From Myxococcota bacterium (GTDB lineage Bacteria; Myxococcota_A; UBA9160; SZUA-336), in assembly GCA_046754285.1 (NCBI GenBank), contig JBHHVJ010000001.1, positions 5,056 through 69,055 on the forward strand: a stretch of DNA of 64,000 bases. Direction: 5' to 3'. Under the pieces are notes generated by a model. The model saw only the letters and a program-made list of their open reading frames with translations, searched no databases and was not told where the DNA came from. The translations under genes and the position numbers were made by a program. Below, in pieces: positions 402 to 45,040 of the stretch (its first letter is position 1; each line of letters opens with the position of its first letter).

Positions 402-500
402 GCGGACGCCGCACCCAGCCGGGGGGCGCGACGGTCCGGCCCGGGCAAGCTAGCTTTGCGCCCCGTTCGGGCCCCCAGGCCCCAGGTGAGAACACCAGCG

Positions 501-2413: not shown

Positions 2414-2467
2414 GCTAGCATGGCTGGGGGAGGCCGCGTACAATGCGGCCGGGGTGGGTCGGGACCG

Positions 2468-3544: not shown

Positions 3545-3575
3545 ACGGTCGTGGATCTCCGGGGAGGGGTCTGGC

Positions 3576-4514: not shown

Positions 4515-4529
4515 CTCTGGGGAGGGGGC

Positions 4530-6415: not shown

Positions 6416-6443
6416 GGATCCAGAGCGGGCCTTGAGACCGGTC

Positions 6444-7397: not shown

Positions 7398-7575
7398 CTC
7401 CCGAGACGCTGCGCAGAACCGCCGGGGAGGGCTCCTCTACGCCGTGGCGACGTAGTATAGCGCTGCGGAGAGAGCTGCGTTCCGGGATGCTGCGGGGCCG
7501 GAGCCACAGCGAATACGCTGGTTAAGCCCCTCGCGCAGGCACTAGAATCGTTCGACCCGTTCCAGGAGGGACGGC

Positions 7576-8721: not shown

Positions 8722-9862
8722 GAGCCTTGCCCAGAATCAGGGTGTGGATGTCGTGGGTGCCCTCGTAGGTGCGCACGGTCTCCAGGTTGACCATGTGGCG
8801 CATGGAGCAGTAATCGTCGACGATCCCGTTGGCGCCGAGCAGGTCGCGCGCCTGACGGGCGATGCGCAGGGCCACGTCGACGTTGTTCATCTTGGCCATC
8901 GAGACCATCGGCGGCTCGAGGCGTCCGGCGTCCTTGAGCCGGCCCAGGCGCAGAGCAAGGAGCTGGGCCTTGGTGAGCTCCGTGGCCATCCAGGCGAGCT
9001 TCTGCTGGGTGAGCTGGAAGGACGCGAGCGGCCGCTGGAAGATGATGCGCTCGCGCGCGTAGCGCAGCGCCTCGTCGAAGCAGGCCTGCGCGGCACCCAC
9101 GGCACCCCAGGCGATTCCGTAACGCGCCTGGGTGAGGCAGCTCAGCGGCCCACGCAGCCCGCGGACCCCGGGCAGGCGATGGCTCTCGGGCACGGGCGTC
9201 CCGTCGAGGAAGAGCTCACTCGTGATCGAGGCGCGCAGCGAGAACTTGCCCTTCATGTCGCGCGCCTCAAAGCCCGACGCACCCCGATCGACCAGGAAGC
9301 CCTGGATGCCGTCGTCGGTGCGCGCCCAAACGAGCGCCACATCAGCGATGCTCCCGTTCGTGATCCAGCGCTTCGTGCCGCTCAGCCGCCAGCCGTCGCC
9401 GTGGCGATGGGCGCGCGTCTGCATGCCGCCGGGGTCGGAGCCGAAGTCGGGCTCGGTGAGGCCGAAGCATCCGATCACCTCGCCGCGGGCCATCGCGGGC
9501 AGCCAGCGCTGCTTCTGCTCCTCGGAGCCGAAGGCGTGGATCGGGTACATGACCAGCGCCCCCTGCACCGACGCGAAGCTCCGCAGGCCAGAGTCACCCC
9601 GCTCGAGCTCCTGCATGACGAGCCCATAGGCGACGGCATTCATGCCCGCACACCCGTAGCCCTGGAGCTGGGCCCCAAAGAGTCCGAGCTCCGCGAGCTT
9701 GGGGACGAGCTCGATCGGAAAAGATCCGTCCTGCCGCACGTGCTCGACGATGCAGGGCAGGAACTCCTTCTCGACGAACGCACGCACCGTATCGCGGGCG
9801 AGCCGCTCCTCCGAGGAGAGCTCGTCCTCGATACGGTAGAAGTCCAGTGCCTCGAAGGGCAC
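8696..9862 (-). CDS. gcdH: glutaryl-CoA dehydrogenase (acyl-CoA dehydrogenase family)
   Basis: 'LDFYRIEDELSSEERLARDTVRAFVEKEF', 'IGCFGLTEPDFGSDPGGMQTRA' and 'KRWITNG' are typical of GcdH. Confidence 0.85.
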   Translation of the reverse strand: MPFEALDFYRIEDELSSEERLARDTVRAFVEKEFLPCIVEHVRQDGSFPIELVPKLAELGLFGAQLQGYGCAGMNAVAYGLVMQELERGDSGLRSFASVQGALVMYPIHAFGSEEQKQRWLPAMARGEVIGCFGLTEPDFGSDPGGMQTRAHRHGDGWRLSGTKRWITNGSIADVALVWARTDDGIQGFLVDRGASGFEARDMKGKFSLRASITSELFLDGTPVPESHRLPGVRGLRGPLSCLTQARYGIAWGAVGAAQACFDEALRYARERIIFQRPLASFQLTQQKLAWMATELTKAQLLALRLGRLKDAGRLEPPMVSMAKMNNVDVALRIARQARDLLGANGIVDDYCSMRHMVNLETVRTYEGTHDIHTLILGKALTGLDAFS

Positions 9863-13134: not shown

Positions 13135-14157
13135 TTGGGCGGACCGGAGATCAGCGTGATCCTGCCGGTGCGCAACGCGGCTCGGACCCTCGATGACGCG
13201 CTGCGCTCGGTCCTCGCGAGCCGCGGCGTTCGCCTCGAGGTTCTCTGCGTCGACGACGGATCGCGGGACGGGAGCTCCGAGATCCTCGCGGAATGGGCGC
13301 GACAGGACCCGCGTGTGGCGTGGCGACGCAGCAGAGGACCGGGGATCTGTGCCGCCCTGAACGTGGCCCTCGCCGACGCACGCGCCTCCTACCTGGCCCG
13401 AATGGACGCCGATGACGAGATGCACCCGGAGCGGCTCGCGGCCCAAGCAGCCCTTCTGGATGCACGCCCGGACCTGTGCCTGGTCGGCTGCTGCGTCGAG
13501 TCCTTTCGCGAGGACGGTCTCGCGGAGGGCTACCGCCTCTACACCGAGTGGGTCAACCGGCTGATCGAGCCCGACCAGATCGCCCGTGAGGCCTTCGTGG
13601 AGTGCCCGGTTCCGCATCCCACCTGGATGCTGCGGCGGGAAGCGGTCGAGCGAGTCGGCGGCTACCGCGATCTCGGCTGGCCCGAGGATCTCGATCTGCT
13701 CTACCGGCTCCTGGTCCGTCGGGAGAGCGTCGGCAAGGTGCCGCGGGTCCTCCACCGCTGGCGGGACCATCCCGAGCGCCTGTCTCGCACGGACCCGCGC
13801 TACTCCCGTGAGGCCTTCGCCCGCGTCAAAGCGCACTTCCTGCCGCGGATCCACCCCATGTCCGGCGCGGTGGTCTGGGGCGCAGGCCGGACGGGTCGGC
13901 GCTTCGTCAAGCTCCTGGCCGCAGAAGGCGTCCTCATCCGGGCCCTGATCGACATCCATCCCGACCGCGTGGGATCGAGCTGGAGGGAGATCCCCATACT
14001 GGACCCCGCGCAGCTCCGCCTGCGCTGGCGGGCCTGGCGCGCGGAAGGTCTGCGGATCCTGGGCGCCGTGGCCAGCCGGGGCGCGAGGTGCCTGATTCGC
14101 GGCGAGCTGCTGGCGCAGGGCATGAAAGAAGGGGAAGACTTTCTGATGGTGGCCTAG
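13135..14157 (+). CDS. GT2-family glycosyltransferase with a C-terminal Rossmann-like domain
   Basis: 'ISVILPVRNAARTLDDALRSV...CVDDGSRDGS' and 'ARMDADD' (DxD). C-terminal 'VVWGAGRTGRRF'. Start uncertain: TTG 13135 or GTG 13156, which has a GGAGA Shine-Dalgarno. Confidence 0.75.
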   Translation: MGGPEISVILPVRNAARTLDDALRSVLASRGVRLEVLCVDDGSRDGSSEILAEWARQDPRVAWRRSRGPGICAALNVALADARASYLARMDADDEMHPERLAAQAALLDARPDLCLVGCCVESFREDGLAEGYRLYTEWVNRLIEPDQIAREAFVECPVPHPTWMLRREAVERVGGYRDLGWPEDLDLLYRLLVRRESVGKVPRVLHRWRDHPERLSRTDPRYSREAFARVKAHFLPRIHPMSGAVVWGAGRTGRRFVKLLAAEGVLIRALIDIHPDRVGSSWREIPILDPAQLRLRWRAWRAEGLRILGAVASRGARCLIRGELLAQGMKEGEDFLMVA

Positions 14158-14252
14158 GGAAGCCACCGCCGCGGCGCAGGTCCGCGCGGGGCAAGGCTTC
14201 AGGTCAGGCCGGCGCCGATCCGAATGGACCGGAGGGGCGAGCAAGAGGGCCG

Positions 14253-15650
14253 ATGGGAATCTCGAGAGAGCTGGCGCTGCTGGTCCTGGCGGCGGGACGG
14301 GGAACGCGAATGCGCTCGCGCCTGCCGAAAGTGCTGCACCCGGTCTGCGGCCGCCCCCTGCTGCTGCATCCGCTCGCGCTGGGGGACGCACTCGGGGTGC
14401 AGCGCCGCATCGTGGTCGTGAGTCCCGGGCAGGACGAGGTGCAAGAGCGAGTCGCGGGCCACGGTGTGGAGATCGTCGAGCAGGCCGAGCCCCTGGGAAC
14501 CGGCCACGCCGTGCTCCAGGCCCGCCCGTTGCTGAACGATCATCCCGGCAGCGTGCTGATCCTCTACGGGGATCACCCGCTGTATCGGGCCCGCACCCTC
14601 GAGGCCCTGCTGGAGGTCCATGCCTCGAGGAAGGCGGACCTGACGCTGCTCACCGGCCAGCTCCCCGACCCGAGCGGCTACGGTCGGATCGTGCGCGGCT
14701 CCGACGGGCGGATCGACCGCATCGTCGAGGATGCCGATGCACCCGAGGAGATCCGGGCTCTCCACGAGGTCAATCTGGGCGTCTACGTCGCCGCGCCCGG
14801 CTTCGTCTTCGCGACGCTGGAGGGCCTGGAGCGCTCCAACGCCCAAGGCGAGCTCTACCTGACCGACCTGGTGGAGCTGGCCCTGCGGGCGGGAAGGCGC
14901 GTGGAGACACACGGGATCGGGGACTGGACCGAGGCCATCGGCGTGAACGACCGGGTCGATCTGGCTCGCGCCGAGAGCGTGCTGCGAAGGCGCATCGCGG
15001 AGCGCTGGATGCTCGCGGGCGTGAGCTTCGTGGATCCCGAGCGGACCTACGTGGACGTGGACGTTGAGATCGGCCCTGACAGCGTGATCGAGCCCGGGGT
15101 CCGCCTGCGCGGCCAGACCCGCATCGGGGCAGCCTGCCGGATCGACGCGGGCGTGGTGGTCGACGGATGCCGGATCGGAGACGGGGTCTGGATCAAGCCG
15201 CACTGCTGGCTCGAGGGCTCGCGGGTCGCAGCGGGCTGCGTCCTGGGACCCTCCGCGCATCTGCGGCCGGGCAGCGAGCTCGCCGAGGGCGTGCGGATCG
15301 GGAACTTCGTCGAGGTCAAGAACTCGAAGCTCGGCACGGGCACGAAGGCCGACCATCTGTCGTACATCGGGGACGCCGACATCGGGGAGCGCGTGACCTT
15401 CGCTTGCGGGGCCATCACCGTGAACTACGATGGCCGACGCAAGAGTCGCACGGTGGTCGGAGACGGCTGCTTCGTGGGATGCAACTCCAATCTCATCGCG
15501 CCGGTGACGCTGGCGGCGGACTCGTACGTCGCCGCGGGATCGACGATCACACGCGAGGTACCGAGCGAGGCGCTGGCCGTGGGCCGTGCACGCCAGCGCA
15601 ACATCGACGGCTGGCGTCGGCGGTTCTTCGCGAAGAGTGACGAGGGATAG
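14253..15650 (+). CDS. glmU: bifunctional UDP-N-acetylglucosamine diphosphorylase / glucosamine-1-phosphate N-acetyltransferase
   Basis: 'LVLAAGRGTRMRSRLPKVLHPVCGRPLL' N-terminus. C-terminal left-handed beta-helix hexapeptide repeats. Sits directly upstream of glmS. Confidence 0.9.
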   Translation: MGISRELALLVLAAGRGTRMRSRLPKVLHPVCGRPLLLHPLALGDALGVQRRIVVVSPGQDEVQERVAGHGVEIVEQAEPLGTGHAVLQARPLLNDHPGSVLILYGDHPLYRARTLEALLEVHASRKADLTLLTGQLPDPSGYGRIVRGSDGRIDRIVEDADAPEEIRALHEVNLGVYVAAPGFVFATLEGLERSNAQGELYLTDLVELALRAGRRVETHGIGDWTEAIGVNDRVDLARAESVLRRRIAERWMLAGVSFVDPERTYVDVDVEIGPDSVIEPGVRLRGQTRIGAACRIDAGVVVDGCRIGDGVWIKPHCWLEGSRVAAGCVLGPSAHLRPGSELAEGVRIGNFVEVKNSKLGTGTKADHLSYIGDADIGERVTFACGAITVNYDGRRKSRTVVGDGCFVGCNSNLIAPVTLAADSYVAAGSTITREVPSEALAVGRARQRNIDGWRRRFFAKSDEG

Positions 15651-15654
15651 CCGC

Positions 15655-17490
15655 ATGTGCGGGATCGTGGCCTATGTGGGAAGCGAAGAGCGTGCCCAGG
15701 ATGTGATCCTCGACGGGCTGCGACGGCTCGAGTACCGGGGCTACGACTCCGCGGGCCTGGCCGTGCTCCAGGACGGCAAGCTTCGCGTCGTGCGCGCGCT
15801 GGGCAAGCTGGTCAACCTCGAGGCCGCGCTCCGCGACGTCCCCGTGCACGGCGCGCTCGGACTCGGTCACACACGCTGGGCGACGCACGGCCGGCCCTCG
15901 GAGGAGAACGCGCATCCCCACTGTGCCGGGACGGTCGCGCTGATCCACAACGGGATCGTGGAGAATCACCGGGAGCTTCGCGAAGGGCTCGTCGCACGTG
16001 GCTGTGAGATTCGCTCGGACACGGACACCGAGCTGATCGCGCATCTGATCCATCTGGAGCGCGAGGCCCGCAAGCCGCTTCTCGAGGCCGTCCAGTCCGC
16101 CGTCTCTCGGCTCGATGGGTCGTACGCGATCGCGGTGATCGACGAGGAGTTCCCCGACTCGATCGTCGTCGCCAAGCACGGCGGCAGCCCGGTGATCCTG
16201 GGTCTGGGACGGGGTGAGCACTTCGTGGCTTCGGACGTGCCGGCAATCCTGCCGTACACGCGCGCCATGATCGTGCTCCTCGATGGAGACGTCGCGGAGA
16301 TCACCCCCACGGCGCTGCAAATCTTCGATGCCGAGGGGCACGAGGTCTCGCGAGCGACGAAGGTGATCCAGTGGGATCCGATCCAGGCGGAGAAGGGCGG
16401 CTACGACCGCTTCATGCAGAAGGAGATCCACGAGCAGCCCCGAGCCATCAGCGACACGATCGGTACGCGCGTGAACGAGGAGCGCGGAGACATCGAGCTT
16501 GACGGCATCGAGTTCGGCGAGGAGTGGCTCGCATCGCTGTCGCGCATTCATCTCCTGGGCTGCGGATCGGCATGGCACGCCAGCCGCGTCGCGCAGTACG
16601 GCCTGGAACGTGCCGCGGGCGTTCCCGTCACCGCAGAGCTGGCGAGCGAATTTCGCCATCGCGATCCGGTCGTAGAGCCCAGTCATCTGGTCGTCGCCGT
16701 CTCCCAGTCGGGGGAGACCAGCGACACGCTGTCGGCCCTGCGTGGGGCGAAGCAGCGCGGGGCCCACACGCTGGCGATCTCCAACGTGCACGAGAGCACG
16801 ATCGCACGCGAGGCGGAGCACTGCCTCTACACCCAGGCCGGGCCCGAGATTGGAGTGGCCTCGACCAAGTGCTTCTCGACCCAGATCGTCACCCTGCACC
16901 TGCTGACCCTCAAGCTGGGCCTGCTGCGCAGCCGGCTCACGCGCGACGAGGTCCGCGAGGAGATCCGTTGGCTGCGGCGGCTGCCGCGGCTCGTCGAGCG
17001 GACGCTCGGCCTCTGGGAGCCCGTCGCGGCGATCGCCCGCAGACACTTCCATGCTCGCGACTTTCTCTTCCTGGGTCGCGGGGTGGGGTTCCCGATCGCG
17101 CTCGAAGGGGCGCTCAAGCTCAAGGAGATCTCCTACATCCACGCCGAGGGGTACGCCGGAGGGGAGCTCAAGCACGGTCCGATCGCGCTGATCGACGAGG
17201 GACTGCCCGTGCTGGTCGTCGCGAACCAGGAGACCTGCTTCGGGAAGATCGCCAGCAACGCCCAGGAGGTTCGCGCACGCGGAGCTCGAGTGATCGCTGT
17301 GGTCTCGGAAGGGGACACACGGGGGCATGAGTTCGCCGACGAGATCATCGAGGTGCCACGCGCCCCCGATCCGCTCAGCGCCGTGCTGGCCACGGTGCCG
17401 CTCCAGATCCTGGCCTATCACGTGGCGACGCTCAAGGGGACCGACGTGGATCAGCCACGGAACCTCGCGAAGAGCGTGACGGTCGAGTAG
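15655..17490 (+). CDS. glmS: glutamine--fructose-6-phosphate aminotransferase
   Basis: 'MCGIVAYVG' N-terminal nucleophile Cys, two SIS domains, C-terminal 'DVDQPRNLAKSVTVE'. Confidence 0.95.
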   Translation: MCGIVAYVGSEERAQDVILDGLRRLEYRGYDSAGLAVLQDGKLRVVRALGKLVNLEAALRDVPVHGALGLGHTRWATHGRPSEENAHPHCAGTVALIHNGIVENHRELREGLVARGCEIRSDTDTELIAHLIHLEREARKPLLEAVQSAVSRLDGSYAIAVIDEEFPDSIVVAKHGGSPVILGLGRGEHFVASDVPAILPYTRAMIVLLDGDVAEITPTALQIFDAEGHEVSRATKVIQWDPIQAEKGGYDRFMQKEIHEQPRAISDTIGTRVNEERGDIELDGIEFGEEWLASLSRIHLLGCGSAWHASRVAQYGLERAAGVPVTAELASEFRHRDPVVEPSHLVVAVSQSGETSDTLSALRGAKQRGAHTLAISNVHESTIAREAEHCLYTQAGPEIGVASTKCFSTQIVTLHLLTLKLGLLRSRLTRDEVREEIRWLRRLPRLVERTLGLWEPVAAIARRHFHARDFLFLGRGVGFPIALEGALKLKEISYIHAEGYAGGELKHGPIALIDEGLPVLVVANQETCFGKIASNAQEVRARGARVIAVVSEGDTRGHEFADEIIEVPRAPDPLSAVLATVPLQILAYHVATLKGTDVDQPRNLAKSVTVE

Positions 17491-34623: not shown

Positions 34624-35355
34624 TCAGAAGCCGGCGAGCCGAAGCAGCGGGAGGGCCACCGCGAGGCGAGGCGAGACACGGAGCGCCTCGAGCTCCGCAC
34701 GCTGCCGGGCGTGCTCGAGGAAGCTCACGGGGCGCGAGCTGGCCAGCAGTCGAGTGAGCACCTCGAGGCGGCCCCGCAAGACCAATCGCACCGGCTCGAG
34801 TCCCGGAGGATCCGCCTTGGGCGATGCGGTGCGGAGCTCCGCACCCCGACCAAGGGCGGCCCCTCCGACCCGCACGATTCGGCCCGAGTGAAGCACCATG
34901 ACGAGCTTGATGCCCGGCATCTCCTCGCCGGCCCCAGCGATCACCAGCGCATACGCACCATCGGGCAGGAGGCGAAGAACCCCCGCCCGCAGAGGCGCGG
35001 GCAGACGACGCAGGCGTTCGAGCCATCCGAGCCAGGGCGGATCCGAGCACAGTGCACCGTCGAGCAGAGCGCGCCAGAGTGGCGCTCCACTCCGGAAGGC
35101 AGGGTGCTCGCCGTCGAGCATCACGATGCGGCTCACACCCGCGGCGACGTCGAGGCTCCGCAACGCCTTCGGCGCCGGGACGGGCAGAGCGGGCGGAAGA
35201 CCCGGGAGCGGTCCGTGATCGCTGCGTACGGCCTGCTGCAGCCGGCCGTCGCGGAGCAAGCCGATGAGACGGACCTCCTGAGCCGCGTGGCCGAGCACCA
35301 GCCGGCGCAGCACAGCGCCCGCCTCGGGACTGAGCTCGATTCTCGGCGTGCTCAC
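34624..35355 (-). CDS. hypothetical protein (no family recognised)
   Basis: High GC3 frame. GTGA start/stop overlap with the upstream GH35/42-like gene suggests co-translation. Confidence 0.5.
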   Translation of the reverse strand: MSTPRIELSPEAGAVLRRLVLGHAAQEVRLIGLLRDGRLQQAVRSDHGPLPGLPPALPVPAPKALRSLDVAAGVSRIVMLDGEHPAFRSGAPLWRALLDGALCSDPPWLGWLERLRRLPAPLRAGVLRLLPDGAYALVIAGAGEEMPGIKLVMVLHSGRIVRVGGAALGRGAELRTASPKADPPGLEPVRLVLRGRLEVLTRLLASSRPVSFLEHARQRAELEALRVSPRLAVALPLLRLAGF

Positions 35356-37430
35356 AGCTCGACCAGCTCGCGAAGCTGCACGCTTCGCGCCGGCAGCTCG
35401 AACGACTCGCCGGCAAGCAGATGCTGTCCCACACCGCGGACCTCCCGGAGCGCCTCACGGGGTGCGAGCGCGATCGTGACACGCAACAGGCGTTCAAGGG
35501 GGTTGGCCAGAAAGAGAAAGCGTCGCTCACCGCCGTGGTGCAGCTCTGTCTCCACACGCGGGTCGGACGCCGCGTAGCAGGGGCGGACATCGAACGGATC
35601 GAGCAGTGCCCGCACGACGTCCGCCAGGGCATCGTCCTTGACGTCGGGAGAGCGCCACGGCAGCCGGAAGCCAAAGTGAACGACTTGGCCGCGGCCCTGC
35701 GGAACCCTCACAGCGAGCGGCCCCGCCTCAGAGCCTATCACGGGCTCTCCCCCCTCGAGCACGTCGGCAGCCTCGATCTCGAGCGCACCGCAACGCGCAC
35801 GCTCGATCCGTGCTCGGGCGCGCATGGGAAACTCGAAGCCGAGCGCGCGGCCGCCCCAGTCGATGCGGGGCACGCGCGGTCCCAGAACGAGCCGACCCCC
35901 GGCCTCCACCCAGCGCCGCAGCCGGAGTGCGAGTGCGGGACTCATGCGTTCGCAGCTCGGCAGGATCGCCACACGCCAGCGCGAGAGCTCAGCCTCGGGA
36001 ATCGATGTGTCCGCAACCGAGAACGCGATCCCCGCCCGACACAGGCCGGTGAACAGACCCTCGAAGAGCGGCTCGTGCAGTGTCTCCATCGGATCCAGCA
36101 GCCCCAGCGGCCGTGGTCGCACGCGGAGGGCCTCCAGTGCCGACGGGGAGGCGAGGCTCGGGCTCAGTGCACCATGAGAGGCACAGGCTTCACGCAAGCG
36201 GCCCAGCTCGCGGTTGGCGAGCAGCAGGCAGTCACTGCGCCGCTCGAGACGCGCGTGATCGATCGCATCGAGCATGCGAAACAGACGCTGCCAACCCGAG
36301 CCCTCGGTCGGATCCCCACCGGGACCGAGCGGGGCCGAAAGCTCGCCGAGACCGTCGCACGCAAGCAATGTCTCGAGATCCAGCGCGCGCACGCCGCTCA
36401 TGGCGAGCACCGCGGCTGCTTCAGCTCCCGGCAGCGGAAGCTCGTCGCGACACCACGAACGCGTGGACGGGATCCCGAGCACGGCGGCCAGAGGTGCGTG
36501 CGCGGACGCCCGCAGACCCAGGCGGCGCAGCCTGGAGAAGCTGGCGCGAGCCGCATCACCGAGAACGAAGCTCACGCCCTGAGCGTGCGACGCCCAGGCA
36601 TCCGCACCGCAGCCGGGTGGATCGTCGTGCACGGCCTCGATCAGAGCGCCGTCGGCTTCGCTCTGCGCGCGGGCGAGCGCGGCACGGCCGACGATCTCGC
36701 GGTGGAGCAGCTCCCCCGCCTCGACCCAGGCGAGCGCACCCTCCAAGTCCTCGGGACCCTCCGGTCCGGTCAGCGGGGGTGCCCCGGTCGGTGCGCCACC
36801 CTGCGGGAACTTCACGCTCAGAAAGCGGGCGTGGAAGGCGAGGGACTCGGGTGCGCGGTCGAGCATTCCCCCACCCCGAACCGGCCTGCGCGAGCCGGGT
36901 CCGGATGCGATCCAGCCGACGACGGGCCCACGGGGCGGGGCGTACGACGCGAAACGCTTCGCGACCGCCTCGAGCCAGACGCAGGACTCGTGTCGCAGCT
37001 GATCCGACGCCGGGGACAAGAGGCCAGGCTCCGGACCTCCGACACCGCGCGCGCGGACGTGGGCGAGAGCGAGAAGGCGGCGCGGGACGCCGTCGCCCGA
37101 CCGCACCCCCGAACCGAGCCAGGGAGCCGGCCGAAGAACCACGAGCAGCCCCCGTGCGTGTGCGATCTCGAGCAGCCGCGGCACGTCGAGGAGCGGATTC
37201 TGCTCGCCCCAGTCGAGCTGCCCGGGAGTGATCTCGTGCCGAGCCCACGACAGGTCCAGCCGCAGCAAGCGGATGCCGAGGCTCGCGGCTCCGTCCACGC
37301 AGGCCTCCCAGCGGGCCGGCGCGATCTCCCAGTACGGCAGACCCGCGGAGCGCCACGGCACGTGGCATCCATCGGTGTCGATTCCGTGGGGGCTCAGGCG
37401 AACCCCGCGGCGTGGACCGCGATCGCTCAT
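35352..37430 (-). CDS. GH35/GH42 beta-galactosidase-like TIM-barrel protein (possibly non-catalytic)
   Basis: 'LPYWEIAPARWEACVDGAASLGIRLLRLDLSWARHEITPGQLDWG...LLEIAHARGLLVVLRPAPW' follows the GH35/42 N-terminal pattern. The expected 'NE' acid/base site appears to read 'GWIASGPG'. Confidence 0.55.
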   Translation of the reverse strand: MSDRGPRRGVRLSPHGIDTDGCHVPWRSAGLPYWEIAPARWEACVDGAASLGIRLLRLDLSWARHEITPGQLDWGEQNPLLDVPRLLEIAHARGLLVVLRPAPWLGSGVRSGDGVPRRLLALAHVRARGVGGPEPGLLSPASDQLRHESCVWLEAVAKRFASYAPPRGPVVGWIASGPGSRRPVRGGGMLDRAPESLAFHARFLSVKFPQGGAPTGAPPLTGPEGPEDLEGALAWVEAGELLHREIVGRAALARAQSEADGALIEAVHDDPPGCGADAWASHAQGVSFVLGDAARASFSRLRRLGLRASAHAPLAAVLGIPSTRSWCRDELPLPGAEAAAVLAMSGVRALDLETLLACDGLGELSAPLGPGGDPTEGSGWQRLFRMLDAIDHARLERRSDCLLLANRELGRLREACASHGALSPSLASPSALEALRVRPRPLGLLDPMETLHEPLFEGLFTGLCRAGIAFSVADTSIPEAELSRWRVAILPSCERMSPALALRLRRWVEAGGRLVLGPRVPRIDWGGRALGFEFPMRARARIERARCGALEIEAADVLEGGEPVIGSEAGPLAVRVPQGRGQVVHFGFRLPWRSPDVKDDALADVVRALLDPFDVRPCYAASDPRVETELHHGGERRFLFLANPLERLLRVTIALAPREALREVRGVGQHLLAGESFELPARSVQLRELVEL

Positions 37431-37508
37431 GGGCGCTCACCTTCCGCACCCACGCTACCACAGCGACCCGATGCGCAGCGCGAGAGGGGGCACTACCCTG
37501 GGCGCGCT

Positions 37509-38768
37509 TTGGCCGATGCCCTCCCTGAGATTCGCTGCCGCGTTCCGGGTCCGCACTCGCGGGCCCTGACGGACCGCCTGGCCGGGGTCGAATGCCCGGA
37601 GGTCACCTGCCTCACGCAGCCCACCGTCTTTTGGGAGCGCGCCACGGGGTCGAACGTGATCGACGTGGACGGCAATCGCTACGTCGACCTGGTTGCGGGG
37701 TTCGGTGTGGCCGCACTCGGCTATGCGCATCCGGAGCTGAGCGCCGTCGCCGCGGAGCAGGCGGCCACGCTGCCCCACGCGATGGGCGACGTCCACCCGG
37801 CGCGCGTCAAGGTCGAGCTGCTCGAGCGACTCCGCGGCGTCCTGCCGAATGGGCTCGACTCCACCCTCCTCTCCTCATCGGGCTCGGACGCGGTCGAGAG
37901 CGCGTTGAAGACGGCGCTGGTGGTAAACGGAAGACCGGACGTGCTGGCCTTTGAGGGCGCATACCATGGACTGGGCCTGGGCGCCCTCGACGTCACACAC
38001 GCCGAGCGCTTTCGCCGTCCCTTCCTCGCGCGGCTGCCGAGCCGAACCCACTTCGTCCCCTATGGCGATGACGCGGCCGCGCGACGGCTCGCCACCCTTG
38101 TACCGCTCGGGGCGATTCTGGTGGAGCCGATCCAGGGACGCGGCGGGATCCGGGTACCACCCGATGGCTTTCTCACGGCCCTGCGCGAGATCGCAGACCA
38201 GACGGGAGCCCTGCTGATCGCGGACGAAGTGTACACGGGTCTATGTCGAACCGGACCCTGGCTGGCCTGCGAGCACGAGAGCGTGGTCCCCGATCTGGTC
38301 ACGCTGGGGAAGGGCCTCGGGGCGGGCTTTCCGATCTCGGCCTGCGTGGGCAGGAGCGAGATCATGAGCTGCTGGGAGCCTTCGCGGGGCGACGCGATCC
38401 ACACCAGCACCCATCTGGGCAATCCGTTGGGATGCGCACTGGGCCTGCGCGTGCTCGAGATCCTCGAGCGAGAGCGAATCCACGAACGTGTCGCCGGCCT
38501 CGGCGCACATCTTCGCGACCGGCTCGAGAGCGAGGTCCGCAAGCGGCCCGGCGTACGCGACGTGCGAGGGCGCGGACTGATGCACGGGATCGAGCTGGAG
38601 GACCCCAAGCGGGCCGCCGCCATCGTGCACGAGGCCCTGCGACGCGGCTGGATCCTGCTCGCCGACGGGCCGCGCGCCAGCGTGCTCACGCTCACACCCC
38701 CGCTCACGATCGCCGAGCCCGTGCTCGACGCGGCCGTCGATCTGCTTCTGGAGCTGCTGGACGGATGA
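37509..38768 (+). CDS. class-III (omega) PLP-dependent aminotransferase
   Basis: 'DVDGNRYVDLVAGFGVAALGYAHPEL', 'SSGSDAVESALK', 'ADEVYTGLCRTG' and 'DLVTLGKGLGAGFP' (PLP Lys). TTG 37509 is the only in-frame start upstream of the conserved core. Confidence 0.85.
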   Translation: MADALPEIRCRVPGPHSRALTDRLAGVECPEVTCLTQPTVFWERATGSNVIDVDGNRYVDLVAGFGVAALGYAHPELSAVAAEQAATLPHAMGDVHPARVKVELLERLRGVLPNGLDSTLLSSSGSDAVESALKTALVVNGRPDVLAFEGAYHGLGLGALDVTHAERFRRPFLARLPSRTHFVPYGDDAAARRLATLVPLGAILVEPIQGRGGIRVPPDGFLTALREIADQTGALLIADEVYTGLCRTGPWLACEHESVVPDLVTLGKGLGAGFPISACVGRSEIMSCWEPSRGDAIHTSTHLGNPLGCALGLRVLEILERERIHERVAGLGAHLRDRLESEVRKRPGVRDVRGRGLMHGIELEDPKRAAAIVHEALRRGWILLADGPRASVLTLTPPLTIAEPVLDAAVDLLLELLDG

Positions 38769-39844
38769 GCCGAGACGAGCTCGATCAGGCGGTTCAGATC
38801 TGGATCCGAGAAGGAGCCGAAGGGCCCCTCGACGAGCCGAGGTTCGAGGCTCTTGCGCTGGCGCTCTTCGCGTATCAACACGAGCACAATGCGCCGTACC
38901 GCAGGCTCTGCGAGACGGTCGGCATCGACGATCCCCGACGCGTCGAATGCTGGCAGGACATTCCAGCCGTACCGACGGGCGCCTTCAAGGAAGCGCGCCT
39001 GGCTTGCTTTCCTCCCGATCGTCGCCTGCGCGTGTTCCGCACGAGTGGCAGCACGACGGAGCGTCGGGGTGAGCTGCATCTCGACACACTCGATCTCTAC
39101 GAGGCGTCCCTGCGCTCAACCTTTGGACAGTACGTGCTCGGCGGGCCCAGCCGGATGCGGATCCTCGTGCTCGCTCCTCCCGCAGAGGAGGCTCCCGACT
39201 CATCCCTCTCACACATGTTTCACATCGCCTGCCGAGATCTCGGCACGGCCGCGAGTCGGTTCTACGTGCGTGGACACGGATGGGATCCGGACGCTCTGAT
39301 CGGGGATCTGGCTGAGGTGGACGAGTCGGTCGCGCTGGTGGGCACGGCCTTCGCATTCGTGCATCTGCTCGATGAGCTCGAGGCTCGGGGTCTTCGGCTC
39401 ACGCTCCCCGTCGGGAGCCGCGCCATGGAGACGGGTGGGTTCAAAGGACGCTCGCGTGAGCTCAGCCGCGAGGAGTTGCACGGTGGCATCGCCAAGGCTC
39501 TCGGTCTCCCGCGCCATGCGATCGTCAACCAGTACGGCATGTGTGAGCTCGCAAGCCAGTTCTACGAGCCGAGCCTGCTGCTGGGCCACGTCACGACCGT
39601 CAAGCGGGTACCGCCCTGGGTCCGCACGCGCGTCGTGGACGCCGCCACCCTGCAGGATCGGCCGCGGGGCGAGCCGGGCGTGCTGGTCCACTACGACCTG
39701 GCCAACACGGGATCCGTGCTCGCGGTCCAGACGTCGGATCTGGGGCGACGGCGGGACGATGGCTTCGAGATCCTGGGACGTCTGCCGGGGGCAGAGCAGC
39801 GCGGCTGTTCGATCGCGGCGGATGCGCTGCTCGCGCTGCGATGA
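38765..39844 (+). CDS. LuxE-like acyl-protein synthetase (long-chain fatty acid activating enzyme)
   Basis: 'FRTSGSTTERRGELHLD' is an adenylating P-loop-like segment. 'METGGFKGRSRELSREEL'. ATGA overlap with the aminotransferase stop. Confidence 0.75.
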   Translation: MSRDELDQAVQIWIREGAEGPLDEPRFEALALALFAYQHEHNAPYRRLCETVGIDDPRRVECWQDIPAVPTGAFKEARLACFPPDRRLRVFRTSGSTTERRGELHLDTLDLYEASLRSTFGQYVLGGPSRMRILVLAPPAEEAPDSSLSHMFHIACRDLGTAASRFYVRGHGWDPDALIGDLAEVDESVALVGTAFAFVHLLDELEARGLRLTLPVGSRAMETGGFKGRSRELSREELHGGIAKALGLPRHAIVNQYGMCELASQFYEPSLLLGHVTTVKRVPPWVRTRVVDAATLQDRPRGEPGVLVHYDLANTGSVLAVQTSDLGRRRDDGFEILGRLPGAEQRGCSIAADALLALR

Positions 39845-41016
39845 ACACACCGTCCTCTCTCACGGATCTCCGGGAGGCAGCGGGGCGCCTCGATCCCGAC
39901 CGCGTCGGCAGCGCGCTCGCGAGCGGCCTCGATCTCTGGCGGGCGGCGGACTCTCCCTGGCTCGCCCGACTCGCACGAGCGCATCCCGTCTACTCGGCGG
40001 CCGTGTTGGAGCGCGGCGTACGGATGGGCGTACAGGCCTGGTCCGCCCAGGCACTGCGTCAGCTCGCGACCGATGCAGCGAGACGGGGTGGGCCGGCGCC
40101 CGGGCTCACGGCGGTCTGGCTCGCGGGCTCCATCCCCACCGCGAGCTTCCACGCGCTCCTGCTTCCGTTGCTGGCCGGCTCCGCCGTCTACGGCCGACCG
40201 TCATCGCACGACCCCGCGAGCGCGCGGCTCTTCACCGCCTCACTTCGTGCGGTGGACCCGGGCGTCGCGGACGCGCTCGAGGTGGGGCGCGACGACACGC
40301 TGCTGGATCAAGCCGACGCGCTGGTCGCTTACGGATCCAATGAGACGATCGAGAGTCTGCGCGGGCGGGCGCCGGCGGGATGCCTCTTCGTGGGCTACGG
40401 ACACAAGCTCTCCGCCGCGGCCGTCGGACCTGCTGCGGATCTGGAGAGCGCCGCCACCGCGGTGGCCCTCGATGCGGCCCTCTTCGACGGGCGGGGATGC
40501 CTCTCCCCAGCGTATGTGTTCGTGGCTCAGGATCCGCAGGGACGCGCGGATCGTTTCGCGGAGCATCTGGCCGACGCGCTTGGGGCGCTGACCGAGACGC
40601 TCCCGCGCGGAGCCCTCTCCGCGACGGAGCAGGTCGCCCTACGCGAGCGCTGGGCGCGGGAGGCGCTGCGGGAGGGGGCGCGCGTGCTCTCACCCGTTCC
40701 ACGCACCGACTGGGCCGTCCTGCTCGCCCCGGCTGGGACCTGGCCCGAGCCCGGCCTGCTTCGCTTCGTGCCGGTGCTGCCCGTGCGAGATCTCGACGAG
40801 CTCGGCACCTGCTGCGCGCAGCTCCATCCGCACCTATCCTCGCTGGCACACGTGGGCTGGGAGGCGGGCGCGGATGAGCTCGAGAAGATCGTGAGACGCG
40901 GCGGCGGTGCGCGGTGCTGCGCACCGGGCCGCTTGCAGGCCCCGCCGCTCGACTGGCGGCAGGACGAGCGGGAGCCGCTCCCGCTCTTGCTACGCAAGCC
41001 GAGGACGACTGCATGA
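39841..41016 (+). CDS. LuxC-like acyl-CoA (acyl-protein) reductase
   Basis: 'LVAYGSNETIESL' and 'FDGRGCLSPAYVFV' (candidate catalytic Cys context, compare LuxC 'DQxACSSP'). ATGA overlap on both sides. Confidence 0.75.
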   Translation: MNTPSSLTDLREAAGRLDPDRVGSALASGLDLWRAADSPWLARLARAHPVYSAAVLERGVRMGVQAWSAQALRQLATDAARRGGPAPGLTAVWLAGSIPTASFHALLLPLLAGSAVYGRPSSHDPASARLFTASLRAVDPGVADALEVGRDDTLLDQADALVAYGSNETIESLRGRAPAGCLFVGYGHKLSAAAVGPAADLESAATAVALDAALFDGRGCLSPAYVFVAQDPQGRADRFAEHLADALGALTETLPRGALSATEQVALRERWAREALREGARVLSPVPRTDWAVLLAPAGTWPEPGLLRFVPVLPVRDLDELGTCCAQLHPHLSSLAHVGWEAGADELEKIVRRGGGARCCAPGRLQAPPLDWRQDEREPLPLLLRKPRTTA

Positions 41017-41483
41017 ACGAGCCTGGAGACGGCCCGCTCGACCGGCCGGCGGTGATGACGCACGTCGCTGTGCGCTGCCGGGACCTCGACGCTTCGCGCC
41101 GCTTCTACCAGCGTTATGCGGGACTCCACCTCGTTCACGAGCGCTGCGACGATCAGGTTCGCGTGATCTGGCTGTCCCACCGGGAGAGGAATCCCGAGTT
41201 CGTGATCGTGCTCCTGGAGATGCCGCACACCGACCCGAGTGAGCCGGGCGCAACGGATCACCTCGGGTTCGCCGTCCGCTCACGCGACGAGGTCGATCGC
41301 ATCGCAGCCCTCGCGAGGGAGGAGGGCCACCTCAAGCTCGGCCCCACCGACGGGGGCCCGATTGTCGGCTACTTCGTCATGGTCCGGGATCCGAGCGGAA
41401 ACACCTGCGAGTTCTCTTACGGACAGCCCATCCCCCCGCCCGAGAGCGTGCGACCCCACGGCCCTCAGCCGTCGAACGGGTAG
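41013..41483 (+). CDS. VOC-family (glyoxalase/bleomycin-resistance/dioxygenase fold) protein
   Basis: 'MTHVAVRCRDLDASRRFYQRYAGLHLV', 'DHLGFAV' and 'GYFVMVRDPSGNTCEF'. Confidence 0.8.
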   Translation: MNEPGDGPLDRPAVMTHVAVRCRDLDASRRFYQRYAGLHLVHERCDDQVRVIWLSHRERNPEFVIVLLEMPHTDPSEPGATDHLGFAVRSRDEVDRIAALAREEGHLKLGPTDGGPIVGYFVMVRDPSGNTCEFSYGQPIPPPESVRPHGPQPSNG

Positions 41484-43018
41484 AGCGTCCCCAGCAGCCA
41501 GCCGAGCCAGAGCGCCTGAAGCACAGCGCTGGCCCAGGGGCCACGGGTCCGGCACGCCAGACGCTGGGCCAGCGGCTCGAGCAGCAGCAGCGCCGGCAGG
41601 AGCACCGGGATCACGCCTGGCGGGCGGGACAGAACCACACCGAATCGTGTAGAAGCCCAGAGCACGAGGAGCGTGAGCCCCTTGCCAGCCAAGGGCGCCC
41701 AGCCGCGGCCCGGAGCCCGCAGAAGAGTCTCGAGCGCCACCAGGTAGGGGAGCAGCAAAAGCACCGTGGCTGCGCAGCCCACGAGCTGCGCGGCCGAGGG
41801 CCAGAGACGGGCGAACGGAATCGCGGCGCTCCCGATTCCCGTGTAAGCCGCGCTGAAGAGCAGCGCGCCCAGTCCCAGGTCACGGAGCTCAGGCCGAGTG
41901 GGAGCCGCGAGACGGCGTCGTGCCAGAAGGACGCCACAGAGGGCCGCACCACAGACCCCGAGCCACGCGAGCACCCCCCGCAGTCCCCGGAGCGGGACGA
42001 AGGCGAGGAGCCCGGGGCCAGACGCGAAGACCAGAGGCAGCGCCCCGAGCAGTGCAGCCGCGAACCCAGCCAACGCGGGCCAGGGGGGCCCCAAGCGCGG
42101 GGGCAAGGCTGCAGCCTCGGTGGGTGCACGGAGCCCGAGCAGGCCCCAGAGCAGCGCGAACGACGCGAGCATCCCGAGAACGCTCCAGCCCAGGAGCGAG
42201 CCGCGTGCTCGCGACGGAGTCGGCCGTGCACCATCGCCGATCGTGAGCGCGAGCCAGGCGAGCATCGCATCCGTACACGTTCTCGTGTAAGCCAGACCGA
42301 ACCCACCGGGCAGCGGAGCCGCGACCTCGGACAGGTGCACGGCGGTCCCGCGCGCCACCTCCCCATAGGTGCGGCCCAGCACCAGACGCTCGAGCTCCGC
42401 CACCTCGGCGCCGATCGCACGAAAGCGCGCCCGCCGAGCGTCCGCATCTCCCGAGCTCCAGATCAGCAGCAGGTTGGGCACGGGGTAGGGACCCGGTGGC
42501 GAGATGGCCCCGCCCACCGCGATCACGGCCGCCACGGCCGGATCGCGTCCCGCGTAGGCGAGGGCGAGCTCGCCGCCCAGACCGTGTCCGGCCAGCGCGA
42601 TCCGCCCCGCGTCGAACGGAGAACGGGTCCGCGCATACAGCACGACCCGATCGAGGTCGTCGAGCAGCACATCGCTGACGACGGGATCGCCGTGAGGAAA
42701 CGGCAGGCGGTTCGCTCCGTGACCGCGCAGATCGGGAGCCACGACAGCGTAGCCCGCATCGGCGAGGCGCCGCGCCTCGTCCGCCAAGATCCCCGCACCG
42801 CGCGCGAAGTCGTGCACGAGCACGACGACCGGCCAACGGCTGCGGCCCGCCGGGTCGAGCTGCGGGTTGGTGCTGTGGCGTGGCTCGTACACGACGGTGG
42901 GGATCGAGCCGTCGATCTCGACATCGTGGCGACGGACGGTACGGGTTCCGAGCCCGATCGCGATCCAGGCCGCGATGAGCGACAGCGCGGCGAGGCCGTA
43001 AAGGATCCGGGCCAGCAC
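41465..43018 (-). CDS. alpha/beta hydrolase fused to a C-terminal polytopic membrane domain
   Basis: N-terminal TM helix. 'VVVLVHDFARGAGI...GYAVVAPDLRGHGAN'. Nucleophile elbow 'LAGHGLGGELAL'. About 250 residues of repeated hydrophobic helices follow. Confidence 0.7.
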   Translation of the reverse strand: MLARILYGLAALSLIAAWIAIGLGTRTVRRHDVEIDGSIPTVVYEPRHSTNPQLDPAGRSRWPVVVLVHDFARGAGILADEARRLADAGYAVVAPDLRGHGANRLPFPHGDPVVSDVLLDDLDRVVLYARTRSPFDAGRIALAGHGLGGELALAYAGRDPAVAAVIAVGGAISPPGPYPVPNLLLIWSSGDADARRARFRAIGAEVAELERLVLGRTYGEVARGTAVHLSEVAAPLPGGFGLAYTRTCTDAMLAWLALTIGDGARPTPSRARGSLLGWSVLGMLASFALLWGLLGLRAPTEAAALPPRLGPPWPALAGFAAALLGALPLVFASGPGLLAFVPLRGLRGVLAWLGVCGAALCGVLLARRRLAAPTRPELRDLGLGALLFSAAYTGIGSAAIPFARLWPSAAQLVGCAATVLLLLPYLVALETLLRAPGRGWAPLAGKGLTLLVLWASTRFGVVLSRPPGVIPVLLPALLLLEPLAQRLACRTRGPWASAVLQALWLGWLLGTLYPFDG

Positions 43019-43040
43019 ACGCGCATGCTAGCATCTTGGC

Positions 43041-44114
43041 GTGAAGCTCGAAGAGGTCGACACACCCGCACTGCTGCTCCGCGCTGATTGCCTCGAGCAG
43101 AACATCGGGCGCATGGCGAGTTTCTTCGCGACGCGGCCGACCGCGTTGCGACCCCACTTCAAGACACCCAAGTGCGCCGAGGTCGCCCGACTCCAGCTCG
43201 AGGCGGGGGCGAGCGGCCTCACCTGGGCGAAGCTCGGTGAGGCCGAAGCTCTGGTCGAGGCCGGGATCCGGTGCTCGATCCTGATCGCGAACCAGGTCGT
43301 CGGCCCGCTCAAGCTCGCCCGGCTCTCGAAGCTCGCGGCGAAGCTCCCCGAGCTGATCGTCGCGGTCGACGACGTGCAGCAGATCGAGGCGCTCGAGCTC
43401 GCCGTGGCCGGGATGTCGGCGCAGCTGGGCGCGCTGATCGAGCTGAATATCGGGATGCACCGCTGTGGCTGTGACGAGCCCGAGCAGACGGTCGCTCTGG
43501 CACAGCGGCTCGAGCGGGGCCGAGTGCGCTACCGCGGGATCATGGGCTACGAGGGTCATGCCGTGCTCATCGCGGACCCGGAGCGTCGCACGGCGCTCAC
43601 CGAGCAGGCGCTCGCCGTCCTCGACCGCCACCGCCAGGCCCTCGAAGGTGCAGGGCTCCCGCCCGCGATCGTCAGTGCGGGGGGCACCGGTACCTACGAT
43701 CAGACCGGCGATCATCCCGGGATCAGTGAGATTCAGGCCGGGAGCTACGTCTTCATGGACGCGGCCTACCGGCGCGTCCGCGGGGAGTTCGGGTGCGCCC
43801 TCACGCTGCTCACGACGGTGCTGCGACGAAGAGGCCGGCTGCTGATCACCGACGCCGGGATGAAGGCGCTGAGTCAGGAGTTCGGCATGCCCGAGGGCAG
43901 CGATCTCCCGCTGCGCTGCGTGGCACTCTCCGAGGAGCACGGACACGTCTTGATCGACGAGGACGTCGAGCTCGAGCTCGCAGCGGGCGACCGAATCGAG
44001 CTGCTGCCGACCCACGGAGACACGACCCTCAACCTGCATGACGAGTACACCGTCCTCCGCGGCGGCCAGGTCGTCGCCCGCTGGCCCATCATCGCGCGCG
44101 GCCGCACACGCTAG
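43041..44114 (+). CDS. DSD1-family PLP enzyme (D-serine dehydratase / D-threonine aldolase-like, alanine-racemase N-terminal fold)
   Basis: 'DTPALLL..DCLEQNI.RM', 'LRPHFKTPKCAEV' (PLP Lys) and C-terminal 'HGDTTLNLHDEY'. Confidence 0.8.
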   Translation: MKLEEVDTPALLLRADCLEQNIGRMASFFATRPTALRPHFKTPKCAEVARLQLEAGASGLTWAKLGEAEALVEAGIRCSILIANQVVGPLKLARLSKLAAKLPELIVAVDDVQQIEALELAVAGMSAQLGALIELNIGMHRCGCDEPEQTVALAQRLERGRVRYRGIMGYEGHAVLIADPERRTALTEQALAVLDRHRQALEGAGLPPAIVSAGGTGTYDQTGDHPGISEIQAGSYVFMDAAYRRVRGEFGCALTLLTTVLRRRGRLLITDAGMKALSQEFGMPEGSDLPLRCVALSEEHGHVLIDEDVELELAAGDRIELLPTHGDTTLNLHDEYTVLRGGQVVARWPIIARGRTR

Positions 44115-45040
44115 TGGACAACAAGGAGAGGGCCGGAGTCGCGGTCACGGGAGCAAATGGCGTGGTGGGACGGGCGATCCTGCGACGCGCACTCGAAGCG
44201 GGCCTCTTCATCCGCGCCATCGTGCGCTCGCAGCGCGCGGTGGACGCTCTGCCCACGATTCCGTCGCCGAGCGGTCGCGTGGCAATCGTCGAGTACGGGA
44301 AGCCCGAGACGCTGGAGGCCGCGTTGTGCGGAGCCCAGACCGTCATTCATCTGCCGGGCCTGCTGATCGAGAGACCGGAGGCGCGCTACAGGGAGGCAAA
44401 CGTTCTCACCACGCAGCGCACGCTCGAGGCCGCGCAGAAGCTCGGCTTGGCGAAGCTCGTGCTGGTGAGCGCGCTGGGGGCCGATGCAAACGGGACCAAC
44501 GCCTACCTTCGGACGAAAGGTGAGGCGGAGGCACTCGTGCGCGCATCCGGCATGCCTTACACGATTCTGCGTGCGCCATTGATCCTGGGTCGGGGTACGG
44601 AGGGATCGAGAGCCCTCCTGCGTGCCGTGCGGAGCCGTGTGGCGTGGCTTCCGGGCGGGGGGCGACACCGGCTCCAGCCGCTCGACGTGGACGACCTGGC
44701 CCGGGCCGCGCTTCAGGCGGCCCGCGTTCCGGAGATCGCCCTGAACCAGACTCTCGATCTGGTCGGCCCGACCTCGTTGCAGGAGCGCGACCTCTTGATT
44801 CGCCTCGCACGGCTGCGCAGGCGCCACATCCGGATCTTCCCGGTTCCACTCGTCCTCTTGCGCGGCCTCCTCGCTCTGCGCGTGCGGCTGCGGGGGCCGG
44901 GCCTCTCGCCCGACGTGCTCGAGGTGATCACCGCCGACACGCGCGTGGATCCGGAGCCGGCCGCCCGGGCGCTCGAGATCACCCTCAGCCCCCTCGAGGC
45001 GACGCTGCGCCGGAGCCTCGGAGGTGCGGAAGCCCCATGA
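44114..45040 (+). CDS. NAD(P)H-binding atypical SDR (NmrA/NDUFA9-like)
   Basis: 'VAVTGANGVVGRAIL' Rossmann loop. TAGTG overlap with the upstream stop. Confidence 0.75.
   Translation: MDNKERAGVAVTGANGVVGRAILRRALEAGLFIRAIVRSQRAVDALPTIPSPSGRVAIVEYGKPETLEAALCGAQTVIHLPGLLIERPEARYREANVLTTQRTLEAAQKLGLAKLVLVSALGADANGTNAYLRTKGEAEALVRASGMPYTILRAPLILGRGTEGSRALLRAVRSRVAWLPGGGRHRLQPLDVDDLARAALQAARVPEIALNQTLDLVGPTSLQERDLLIRLARLRRRHIRIFPVPLVLLRGLLALRVRLRGPGLSPDVLEVITADTRVDPEPAARALEITLSPLEATLRRSLGGAEAP

Follow-up and report, generated by a model that had tools for sequence, protein, structure and literature searches.

A LuxE–LuxC–aminotransferase operon from a Myxococcota bacterium as a candidate nitrile-free route from 7-carboxy-7-deazaguanine to preQ1

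The base 7-aminomethyl-7-deazaguanine (preQ1) is put into tRNA by Tgt on the way to queuosine. QueE makes a single free carboxylate, 7-carboxy-7-deazaguanine (CDG). To our knowledge, the steps that lead from CDG to preQ1 have been described only as the QueC/QueF pair, and we know of no biological nitrile reductase other than QueF. QueC provides a precedent for the activation of CDG by ATP, and aryl aldehydes are turned into arylmethylamines by omega-transaminases. A second described system, the LuxC–LuxE fatty acid reductase (PDB 7xc6), bears on the genes presented here. These form a four-gene operon in a 64-kb stretch of Myxococcota DNA (contig JBHHVJ010000001.1, 64,000 nucleotides; hereafter referred to as the window) and encode an aminotransferase (AT), a LuxE-like protein, a LuxC-like protein and a protein of the vicinal oxygen chelate (VOC) fold. 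We regard it as an evenly balanced proposition that this operon converts CDG by way of 7-formyl-7-deazaguanine to preQ1, bypassing QueC and QueF.

The four genes form one block on the + strand, and all of their open reading frames (ORFs) are uninterrupted on translation. The first encodes a class-III (omega-type) pyridoxal-phosphate (PLP) aminotransferase of 419 amino acids (37509–38768, +; Aminotran_3, E = 3e-93), the second a LuxE-like ATP-dependent acyl-protein synthetase of the ANL superfamily (38765–39844, +; 359 amino acids; PF04443, E = 4.5e-15) and the third a LuxC-like acyl-protein thioester reductase of the aldehyde dehydrogenase superfamily (39841–41016, +; 391 amino acids; PF05893, E = 1.9e-41). 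The VOC gene comes last. ATGA start/stop overlaps join the genes at all three junctions (38765–38768, 39841–39844 and 41013–41016), as stated in the original prediction, which had been made from the letters alone. Its four family assignments also held, with matches to Aminotran_3, PF04443, PF05893 and PF00903, and the motifs that it quoted are present in the translations. When genes were called independently on an identical metagenome contig, the same four products resulted, including the 419-residue aminotransferase, for which the start is a TTG codon (37509), the first in-frame start past the divergent upstream gene. This upstream neighbour is GH35/42-like (35352–37430, −), and a convergent alpha/beta-hydrolase gene (41465–43018, −) bounds the operon downstream. 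The four-gene block is thus a discrete unit.

Judged from their sequences, genes 2 and 3 are genuine but distant members of the LuxE and LuxC superfamilies. The Pfam profiles named in the original prediction matched both above the gathering cut-offs (LuxE-like protein, 55.9 bits against 24.9 for PF04443, residues 24–351; LuxC-like protein, 142.7 bits against 21 for PF05893). By contrast, scores against the equivalog models for true LuxE (NF052244; 58.2 bits, cut-off 550) and true LuxC (NF052251; 48.5 bits, cut-off 750) fell far under the cut-offs, and neither Pfam nor NCBIfam (June 2026) holds a model specific for this LuxE/LuxC subfamily. The sole PDB match of each protein is its counterpart in 7xc6, LuxE with 63 bits and the LuxC chain with 35 bits. 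In these alignments, the C-terminal ..QRGCS.. of the LuxE-like protein lies over ..QKGCS.. of LuxE, and ..GRGCLS.. of the LuxC-like protein over ..QQACFS.. of LuxC. The acyl-accepting Cys348, about 10 residues from the LuxE-like C terminus, is kept in 117 of 118 homologues, among which the TSGST, YGMxE and ETGGFKG motifs are also conserved; the catalytic Cys220 of the LuxC-like protein is invariant (109 of 109). With the two acyl-carrying cysteines kept, one would expect an ATP-driven relay that leads from acid through acyl-cysteine to aldehyde, and this expectation is well supported. The phage collection searched contained one remote match (24% identity).

We compared about 135 related loci, of which 79 came from a genome scan, 45 from a metagenome scan and 11 from individual homologue look-ups. 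Up to 10 kb was viewed around each locus, and the neighbourhoods total about 1.6 Mb (individual loci are cited below by L number). The constant unit across these loci is the LuxE–LuxC pair, present in Myxococcota, Verrucomicrobiota, Gemmatimonadota, NC10, Bacillota, Dormibacterota, Eremiobacterota, Chloroflexi, Actinomycetota and others. Of the 29 Myxococcota genome loci, 28 have the aminotransferase gene next to the pair, as do 11 of the 26 Verrucomicrobiota loci, both Bacillota loci and L046, L053, L131 and L134. The trio occurs in two gene orders, AT–luxE–luxC or luxE–luxC–AT. Solitary LuxE-like genes, with no LuxC gene beside them, were seen in Binatia, Armatimonadota and Nitrospirota (L132, L133, L138 and L139), so the pair is not universal. 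In L134 (4122–9360) the order is def–fmt–AT–luxE–luxC, the trio coming after the genes for peptide deformylase and Met-tRNA formyltransferase in a translation-related housekeeping context. An apparent LuxE–LuxC fusion in L049 (853-amino-acid ORF) was rejected; luxE there is in a different frame (7989–9113). As for the four-gene block, whose conservation the original prediction had left to be checked, the AT–LuxE–LuxC core recurs across phyla and the VOC gene is restricted to one Myxococcota subclade. The conserved unit is a core of three genes, to which the VOC gene is a clade-specific addition.

The aminotransferase matches PF00202 (Aminotran_3) over its full length with 313 bits and carries the DLVTLGKGLGAG segment of the PLP-lysine region. 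It scored under every NCBIfam equivalog cut-off, the best being ArgD (NF002874; 309 bits against 457), and it falls further under the cut-offs for GabT, LysJ, BioA, putrescine aminotransferase and PigE. Its nearest solved structures are acetylornithine aminotransferase/LysJ, GabT and putrescine aminotransferase. Among the aminotransferases found beside the LuxE–LuxC pair, those of Verrucomicrobiota (QueE-linked, see below), L046, L053 and L134 are 44–53% identical to that of the window, which groups with the QueE-linked Verrucomicrobiota enzymes (46–48%). Identity to the NC10 and Bacillota aminotransferases is only 31–39%, and these belong to other class-III subfamilies. By this measure, an aminotransferase has been recruited to the LuxE/LuxC pair at least three times, and this makes a good case that the function under selection is amination of the aldehyde. 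With both cysteines conserved and the trio kept across phyla, the general logic put forward in the original prediction, from acid through aldehyde to primary amine, holds, with an activated thioester between acid and aldehyde.

What acid enters this sequence of steps is suggested by the neighbours of the relatives. When all neighbouring ORFs were clustered, the only neighbour recurring across phyla was QueE. All 11 AT-bearing Verrucomicrobiota loci have queE directly upstream, in the order queE–AT–luxE–luxC (TIGR04349, 312.6 bits against a cut-off of 300), with a queE–AT gap of 6 bp in L044, L054 and L056. In L032 (6621–7900, −), and also in L038 and L052, all Verrucomicrobiota, an unrelated gene, which encodes a membrane-anchored protein, sits on the opposite strand between the aminotransferase gene and luxE and splits this cluster. 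High-GC Bacillota (L049 and L047) have a five-gene operon, queD–queE–luxE–luxC–AT, flanked by unrelated genes for a major facilitator superfamily protein and citramalate synthase. In an unclassified low-GC lineage (L120 and L129), a queE-like radical-SAM gene is followed by luxE and luxC, and the NC10 locus L131 has queG–AT–luxE–luxC (QueG TIGR00276, 390 bits, cut-off 200). That the pair should have three different que genes for neighbours, spread over four independent lineages, is by a rough estimate far beyond chance, and all AT-partnered lineages that have informative neighbours are queuosine-linked. The adjacency to queG links the genes to the queuosine of tRNA rather than to a secondary metabolite. 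In the queCDEF operon of Bacillus subtilis, queC and queF accompany queD and queE; in L049, luxE, luxC and the aminotransferase gene come straight after queD and queE. Searches of the roughly 1.6 Mb of neighbourhoods with Escherichia coli and locus-derived queries found no queC, queF, tgt, queA, folE or yhhQ, which is only suggestive.

A different setting was observed in a sister clade. Cultured relatives in Pantoea, Azospirillum and Priestia, carried on large plasmids and chromids, have LuxE proteins 41–43% identical to that of the window. Their operons consist of luxE and luxC followed by a gene for a short-chain dehydrogenase/reductase (SDR), and those of Azospirillum and Priestia also hold an ABC transporter with an NMT1/THI5-like binding protein. 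A thiamine pyrophosphate (TPP) riboswitch lies upstream of luxE in Pantoea and Azospirillum; Priestia has the same gene order and no riboswitch match. Loci from Chloroflexi (L043), Actinomycetota (L058) and a metagenome (L084) also open with a TPP riboswitch, followed in L043 and L084 by a gene for a Zn-alcohol-dehydrogenase~LuxE fusion, luxC and a Xan_ur_permease gene. The riboswitches (RF00059, 60–72 bits) are directly upstream of the LuxE–LuxC operons, at L142:7716–7845, L143:7674–7806, L043:6502–6606, L058:6390–6492 and L084:6536–6640. The thiamine-linked operons, as far as their genes were examined, all have an alcohol-forming dehydrogenase, either an SDR or a fused Zn-alcohol dehydrogenase, and none has an aminotransferase. 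The TPP clade appears to import a nucleobase-like acid and to reduce it via the aldehyde to the alcohol. The product is plausibly the thiamine pyrimidine 4-amino-5-hydroxymethyl-2-methylpyrimidine (HMP), which suggests that these operons represent an undescribed thiamine-pyrimidine salvage from acid through aldehyde to HMP.

Two points follow from this comparison. First, the third enzyme sets the product, because the sister clade pairs the same LuxE/LuxC subfamily with an alcohol dehydrogenase rather than with an aminotransferase. Second, the que neighbours, taken together with the riboswitches and transporters of the sister clade, indicate that the substrates of the subfamily seem to be small heteroaromatic carboxylates and not fatty acids. 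At LuxC residue 366, all que-linked and AT-linked lineages and Myxococcota have Q, and the TPP clade has G or T. Ten LuxC specificity positions were initially identified, and the set shrank to this one when all six TPP-clade sequences were used. In LuxE the differences between classes are few and conservative.

We therefore consider CDG, the QueE product, as the substrate of a three-step carboxylate-to-aminomethyl pathway. In the first step, the LuxE-like enzyme would adenylate CDG with ATP and load it as a thioester on its own Cys348. The acyl group would then be moved to Cys220 of the LuxC-like reductase, and reduction with NAD(P)H would release 7-formyl-7-deazaguanine. Finally, the class-III aminotransferase would turn this aldehyde into preQ1, so that the route would stand in for QueC and QueF without a nitrile. 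Substrate, product and cofactor are what we infer from the genes and their neighbours, as is a function shared between the Myxococcota operon and its que-linked orthologues.

Several observations weigh against this assignment. Neither in the window nor in the approximately 29 genome loci and approximately 40 metagenome loci of related Myxococcota does the operon have a que gene as a neighbour, and our confidence in the CDG reading is held down for this reason. The assignment to Myxococcota is by orthology at 35–50% identity, within a LuxE/LuxC subfamily that is not functionally uniform and that has the TPP-regulated clade nested inside it. The neighbour-joining trees are star-like and carry no support values, and residue 366 is the sole robust specificity-determining position. 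In many lineages the LuxE–LuxC pair has no adjacent aminotransferase gene, and the scheme leaves the VOC gene without a part to play. Finally, Rfam gave no preQ1 riboswitch for the window or for any of 40 related loci, which is weak evidence because many canonical que operons also lack one.

The same acid-to-aldehyde-to-aminomethyl chemistry could act on another small heteroaromatic or nucleobase-like carboxylate, for example a thiamine-pyrimidine-type acid, giving 4-amino-5-aminomethyl-2-methylpyrimidine, or another salvaged base derivative. We consider this, the main rival, unlikely. The TPP-controlled clade, with its NMT1/THI5-type or Xan_ur_permease transporters, demonstrates that the substrate of the family has changed at least once, so that carrying CDG over to the Myxococcota operon is not automatic; the missing que neighbour and the lack of resolution in the LuxE/LuxC tree leave room for such a change here too. 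Against it, the window block lacks the features that mark the TPP clade: its partner enzyme is an aminotransferase, it has no transporter, and no TPP riboswitch was detected in the window even at E ≤ 5 (nor in the que-linked loci scanned), its 78-bp leader being too short for one. The thiamine operons use an alcohol-forming dehydrogenase and never an aminotransferase, whereas the AT-partnered lineages with informative neighbours are all queuosine-linked, and it is with the QueE-linked aminotransferases that the window enzyme groups. These three lines of evidence favour the transfer of CDG to the window.

A LuxCE-type fatty acid reductase acting with an omega-transaminase, giving a long-chain fatty amine or an aminated lipid, was the reading put forward in the original prediction. 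In its favour are the names of the Pfam families, the homology to 7xc6 and the annotation of relatives as "long-chain fatty acid--CoA ligase" in the source databases, and there is a characterised precedent in TabE, a LuxC-like reductase, and TabA, an omega-transaminase, which make dodecylamine for tambjamine BE-18591 (bioRxiv 10.1101/2025.08.11.669332). However, the scores lie far under the equivalog cut-offs (58 against 550 bits for LuxE and 48 against 750 bits for LuxC), and genes for lipid functions (luxD, acyl carrier protein, thioesterase, acyltransferase or others) are missing beside the block in every lineage. The recurring and informative neighbours are instead queD, queE and queG, or a TPP riboswitch together with transporters of the nucleobase type, and the setting is that of housekeeping genes without a secondary-metabolite cluster. 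Fatty amine formation is thus given a slim chance, and the fatty substrate was probably wrong. The original prediction was correct that luxA, luxB and luxD are absent from the window: among its 54 coding-like ORFs, Pfam detected no Bac_luciferase (luxA/B), no LuxD-type acyltransferase, no polyketide synthase or nonribosomal peptide synthetase and no que gene. Nor was any luxA/luxB or luxD, the genes that accompany luxC and luxE in a lux operon, seen in the gene maps of the related loci.

Slimmer still is the chance of an amino-acid-type route resembling ArgB/ArgC/ArgD or LysZ/LysY/LysJ, in which the omega-carboxylate of an amino or dicarboxylic acid would become a semialdehyde and then a diamine or omega-amino acid. 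The best family and structure matches of the aminotransferase (acetylornithine/LysJ, GabT and putrescine aminotransferases) point this way, as does a conserved alanine-racemase-N/D-serine-dehydratase-like PLP gene downstream in Myxococcota. Yet the aminotransferase scores under all equivalog cut-offs, no amino-acid pathway gene recurs beside the trio outside Myxococcota (within Myxococcota both flanks are syntenic and therefore uninformative), and the adjacency of que genes would be left unexplained. Least probable is that the trio uses CDG for something other than tRNA queuosine, for instance a DNA modification or a secondary metabolite of the 7-deazapurine type: QueD/QueE adjacency alone would fit any 7-deazapurine product, but the queG of NC10 encodes an enzyme that acts only on epoxyqueuosine-tRNA, no DpdA/Tgt-like, glycosyltransferase or tailoring gene is nearby, and the chromosomal neighbourhoods are of a housekeeping, non-cluster kind in many phyla.

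The fourth gene of the operon (41013–41483, +) encodes a glyoxalase-I-like single-domain VOC protein of 156 amino acids (PF00903, E = 7.6e-13). An AlphaFold2 model (pLDDT 88) has the paired beta-alpha-beta-beta-beta fold, and its top PDB folds in Foldseek are GloA2 (4mtq), E. coli glyoxalase I (1f9z) and FosX, which are generic matches only. H17, H83 and E133 are invariant, and the second canonical metal-ligand position of the H/E/H/E site, E69, varies; the protein scores far under all glyoxalase equivalog cut-offs. The family is narrow, with 205 homologues at 58–75% identity in a database of 5.8 billion proteins. These homologues sit on contigs equal in size to those bearing LuxE matches, and the VOC protein is therefore a clade-specific accessory of the operon. 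Outside this operon in one Myxococcota subclade, the family does not seem to occur.

Between the GH35/42-like gene and the operon, 78 bp of intergenic DNA (37431–37508) presumably hold the promoter and 5′ untranslated region. In this interval no Rfam family was detected at the gathering threshold or at E ≤ 5, nor was a sigma-70-like consensus found, and consensus scans for promoters and terminators gave nothing. The G+C content of the window is 69%, and many long ORFs in it are therefore spurious. One of them, an ORF of 1115 amino acids (35421–38768) in frame with the aminotransferase gene, was rejected as a high-G+C artefact, since the first 696 of its codons, antisense to the real GH35/42-like gene (35352–37430, −), translate into arginine-rich nonsense. 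This ORF could mislead gene callers.

The window as a whole is ordinary housekeeping chromosome rather than a biosynthetic gene cluster, with genes for HflX, GlmU, GlmS, UvrD, ProRS, RNase D, MutY, AroC (chorismate synthase) and acetyl-CoA synthetase. A polysaccharide-modification cluster at 456–8721 comprises two GT4 glycosyltransferases, a Glyco_trans_1_2-type protein, two SGNH/AlgX-like acyl-hydrolases and two methyltransferases, and a further GT2 gene together with GlmU and GlmS is found at 13135–17490. After the operon (41465–45040) come the alpha/beta hydrolase (−), an AlaRac_N/D-Ser-dehydratase-like PLP enzyme (+) and an NAD-dependent epimerase/NmrA-like gene (+), and the same three genes lie downstream in most related Myxococcota loci. 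We set aside the flank genes (GH35/42-like, alpha/beta hydrolase, AlaRac_N/D-Ser-dehydratase-like and NAD epimerase) as a sign of functional linkage; both flanks are syntenic only inside this clade, so that the linkage is uninformative and may reflect plain synteny.

In a wider view, a widespread and undescribed QueC/QueF-independent, nitrile-free route to preQ1 in Myxococcota, Verrucomicrobiota, NC10, some Bacillota and other, mostly uncultured phyla, in which a LuxE/LuxC-type heteroaryl-carboxylate reductase would work with a transaminase, together with the reduction of a pyrimidine carboxylate to HMP in the TPP clade, is a proposition that we place slightly below an even chance. We found no paper tying LuxE/LuxC homologues to queuosine or thiamine, and none that mentions 7-formyl-7-deazaguanine, although an earlier description elsewhere is possible; literature matches on galactosyrin, a flagellin-glycosylation island and Dickeya were unrelated. 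If correct, a second and chemically different preQ1 route would change how queuosine capacity is deduced from genomes, since many metagenome-assembled genomes would have been wrongly scored as queuosine auxotrophs or salvagers. Thousands of proteins annotated "long-chain fatty acid--CoA ligase / acyl-CoA reductase" would gain a new function, and a compact ATP/NAD(P)H/PLP cascade to heteroaryl-methylamines could interest biocatalysis.

With the LuxC–LuxE fatty acid reductase (7xc6), the operon of the window shares the two folds, the adjacent gene pair and both acyl-carrying cysteines. The two systems are only very remotely related (63 and 35 bits), and the LuxC-like protein is approximately 90 residues shorter. 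Unlike the system of luminous bacteria, the window block has no LuxD, LuxA or LuxB and is partnered with an aminotransferase, and its context points to a heteroaromatic acid, whereas the substrate there is myristate. TabE and TabA, and the fused thioester-reductase/aminotransferases PigE and TamH, follow the same logic, in that an aldehyde formed by a reductase is converted by a class-III transaminase to a primary amine, and PigE is among the family matches of the window aminotransferase. By contrast, these enzymes act on fatty acyl chains bound to acyl carrier protein or CoA in secondary-metabolite clusters; the window has a LuxE-type self-acylating synthetase, no carrier protein and a housekeeping setting.

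The TPP-riboswitch operons are related to the window operon through the same LuxE/LuxC subfamily, the adjacent pair and the conserved cysteines. They differ in having an SDR or fused Zn-alcohol dehydrogenase, a transporter and a riboswitch, where the window has an aminotransferase and neither of the latter two. QueC and QueF would have the same start and end compounds as the proposed route, and in both the carboxylate of CDG would first be activated by ATP. The folds are unrelated, however, and the proposed intermediate is an aldehyde rather than an amide and a nitrile. One hydride would be consumed instead of two, and the nitrogen of preQ1 would come from an amino donor through PLP, whereas that of the QueC/QueF route comes from ammonia.

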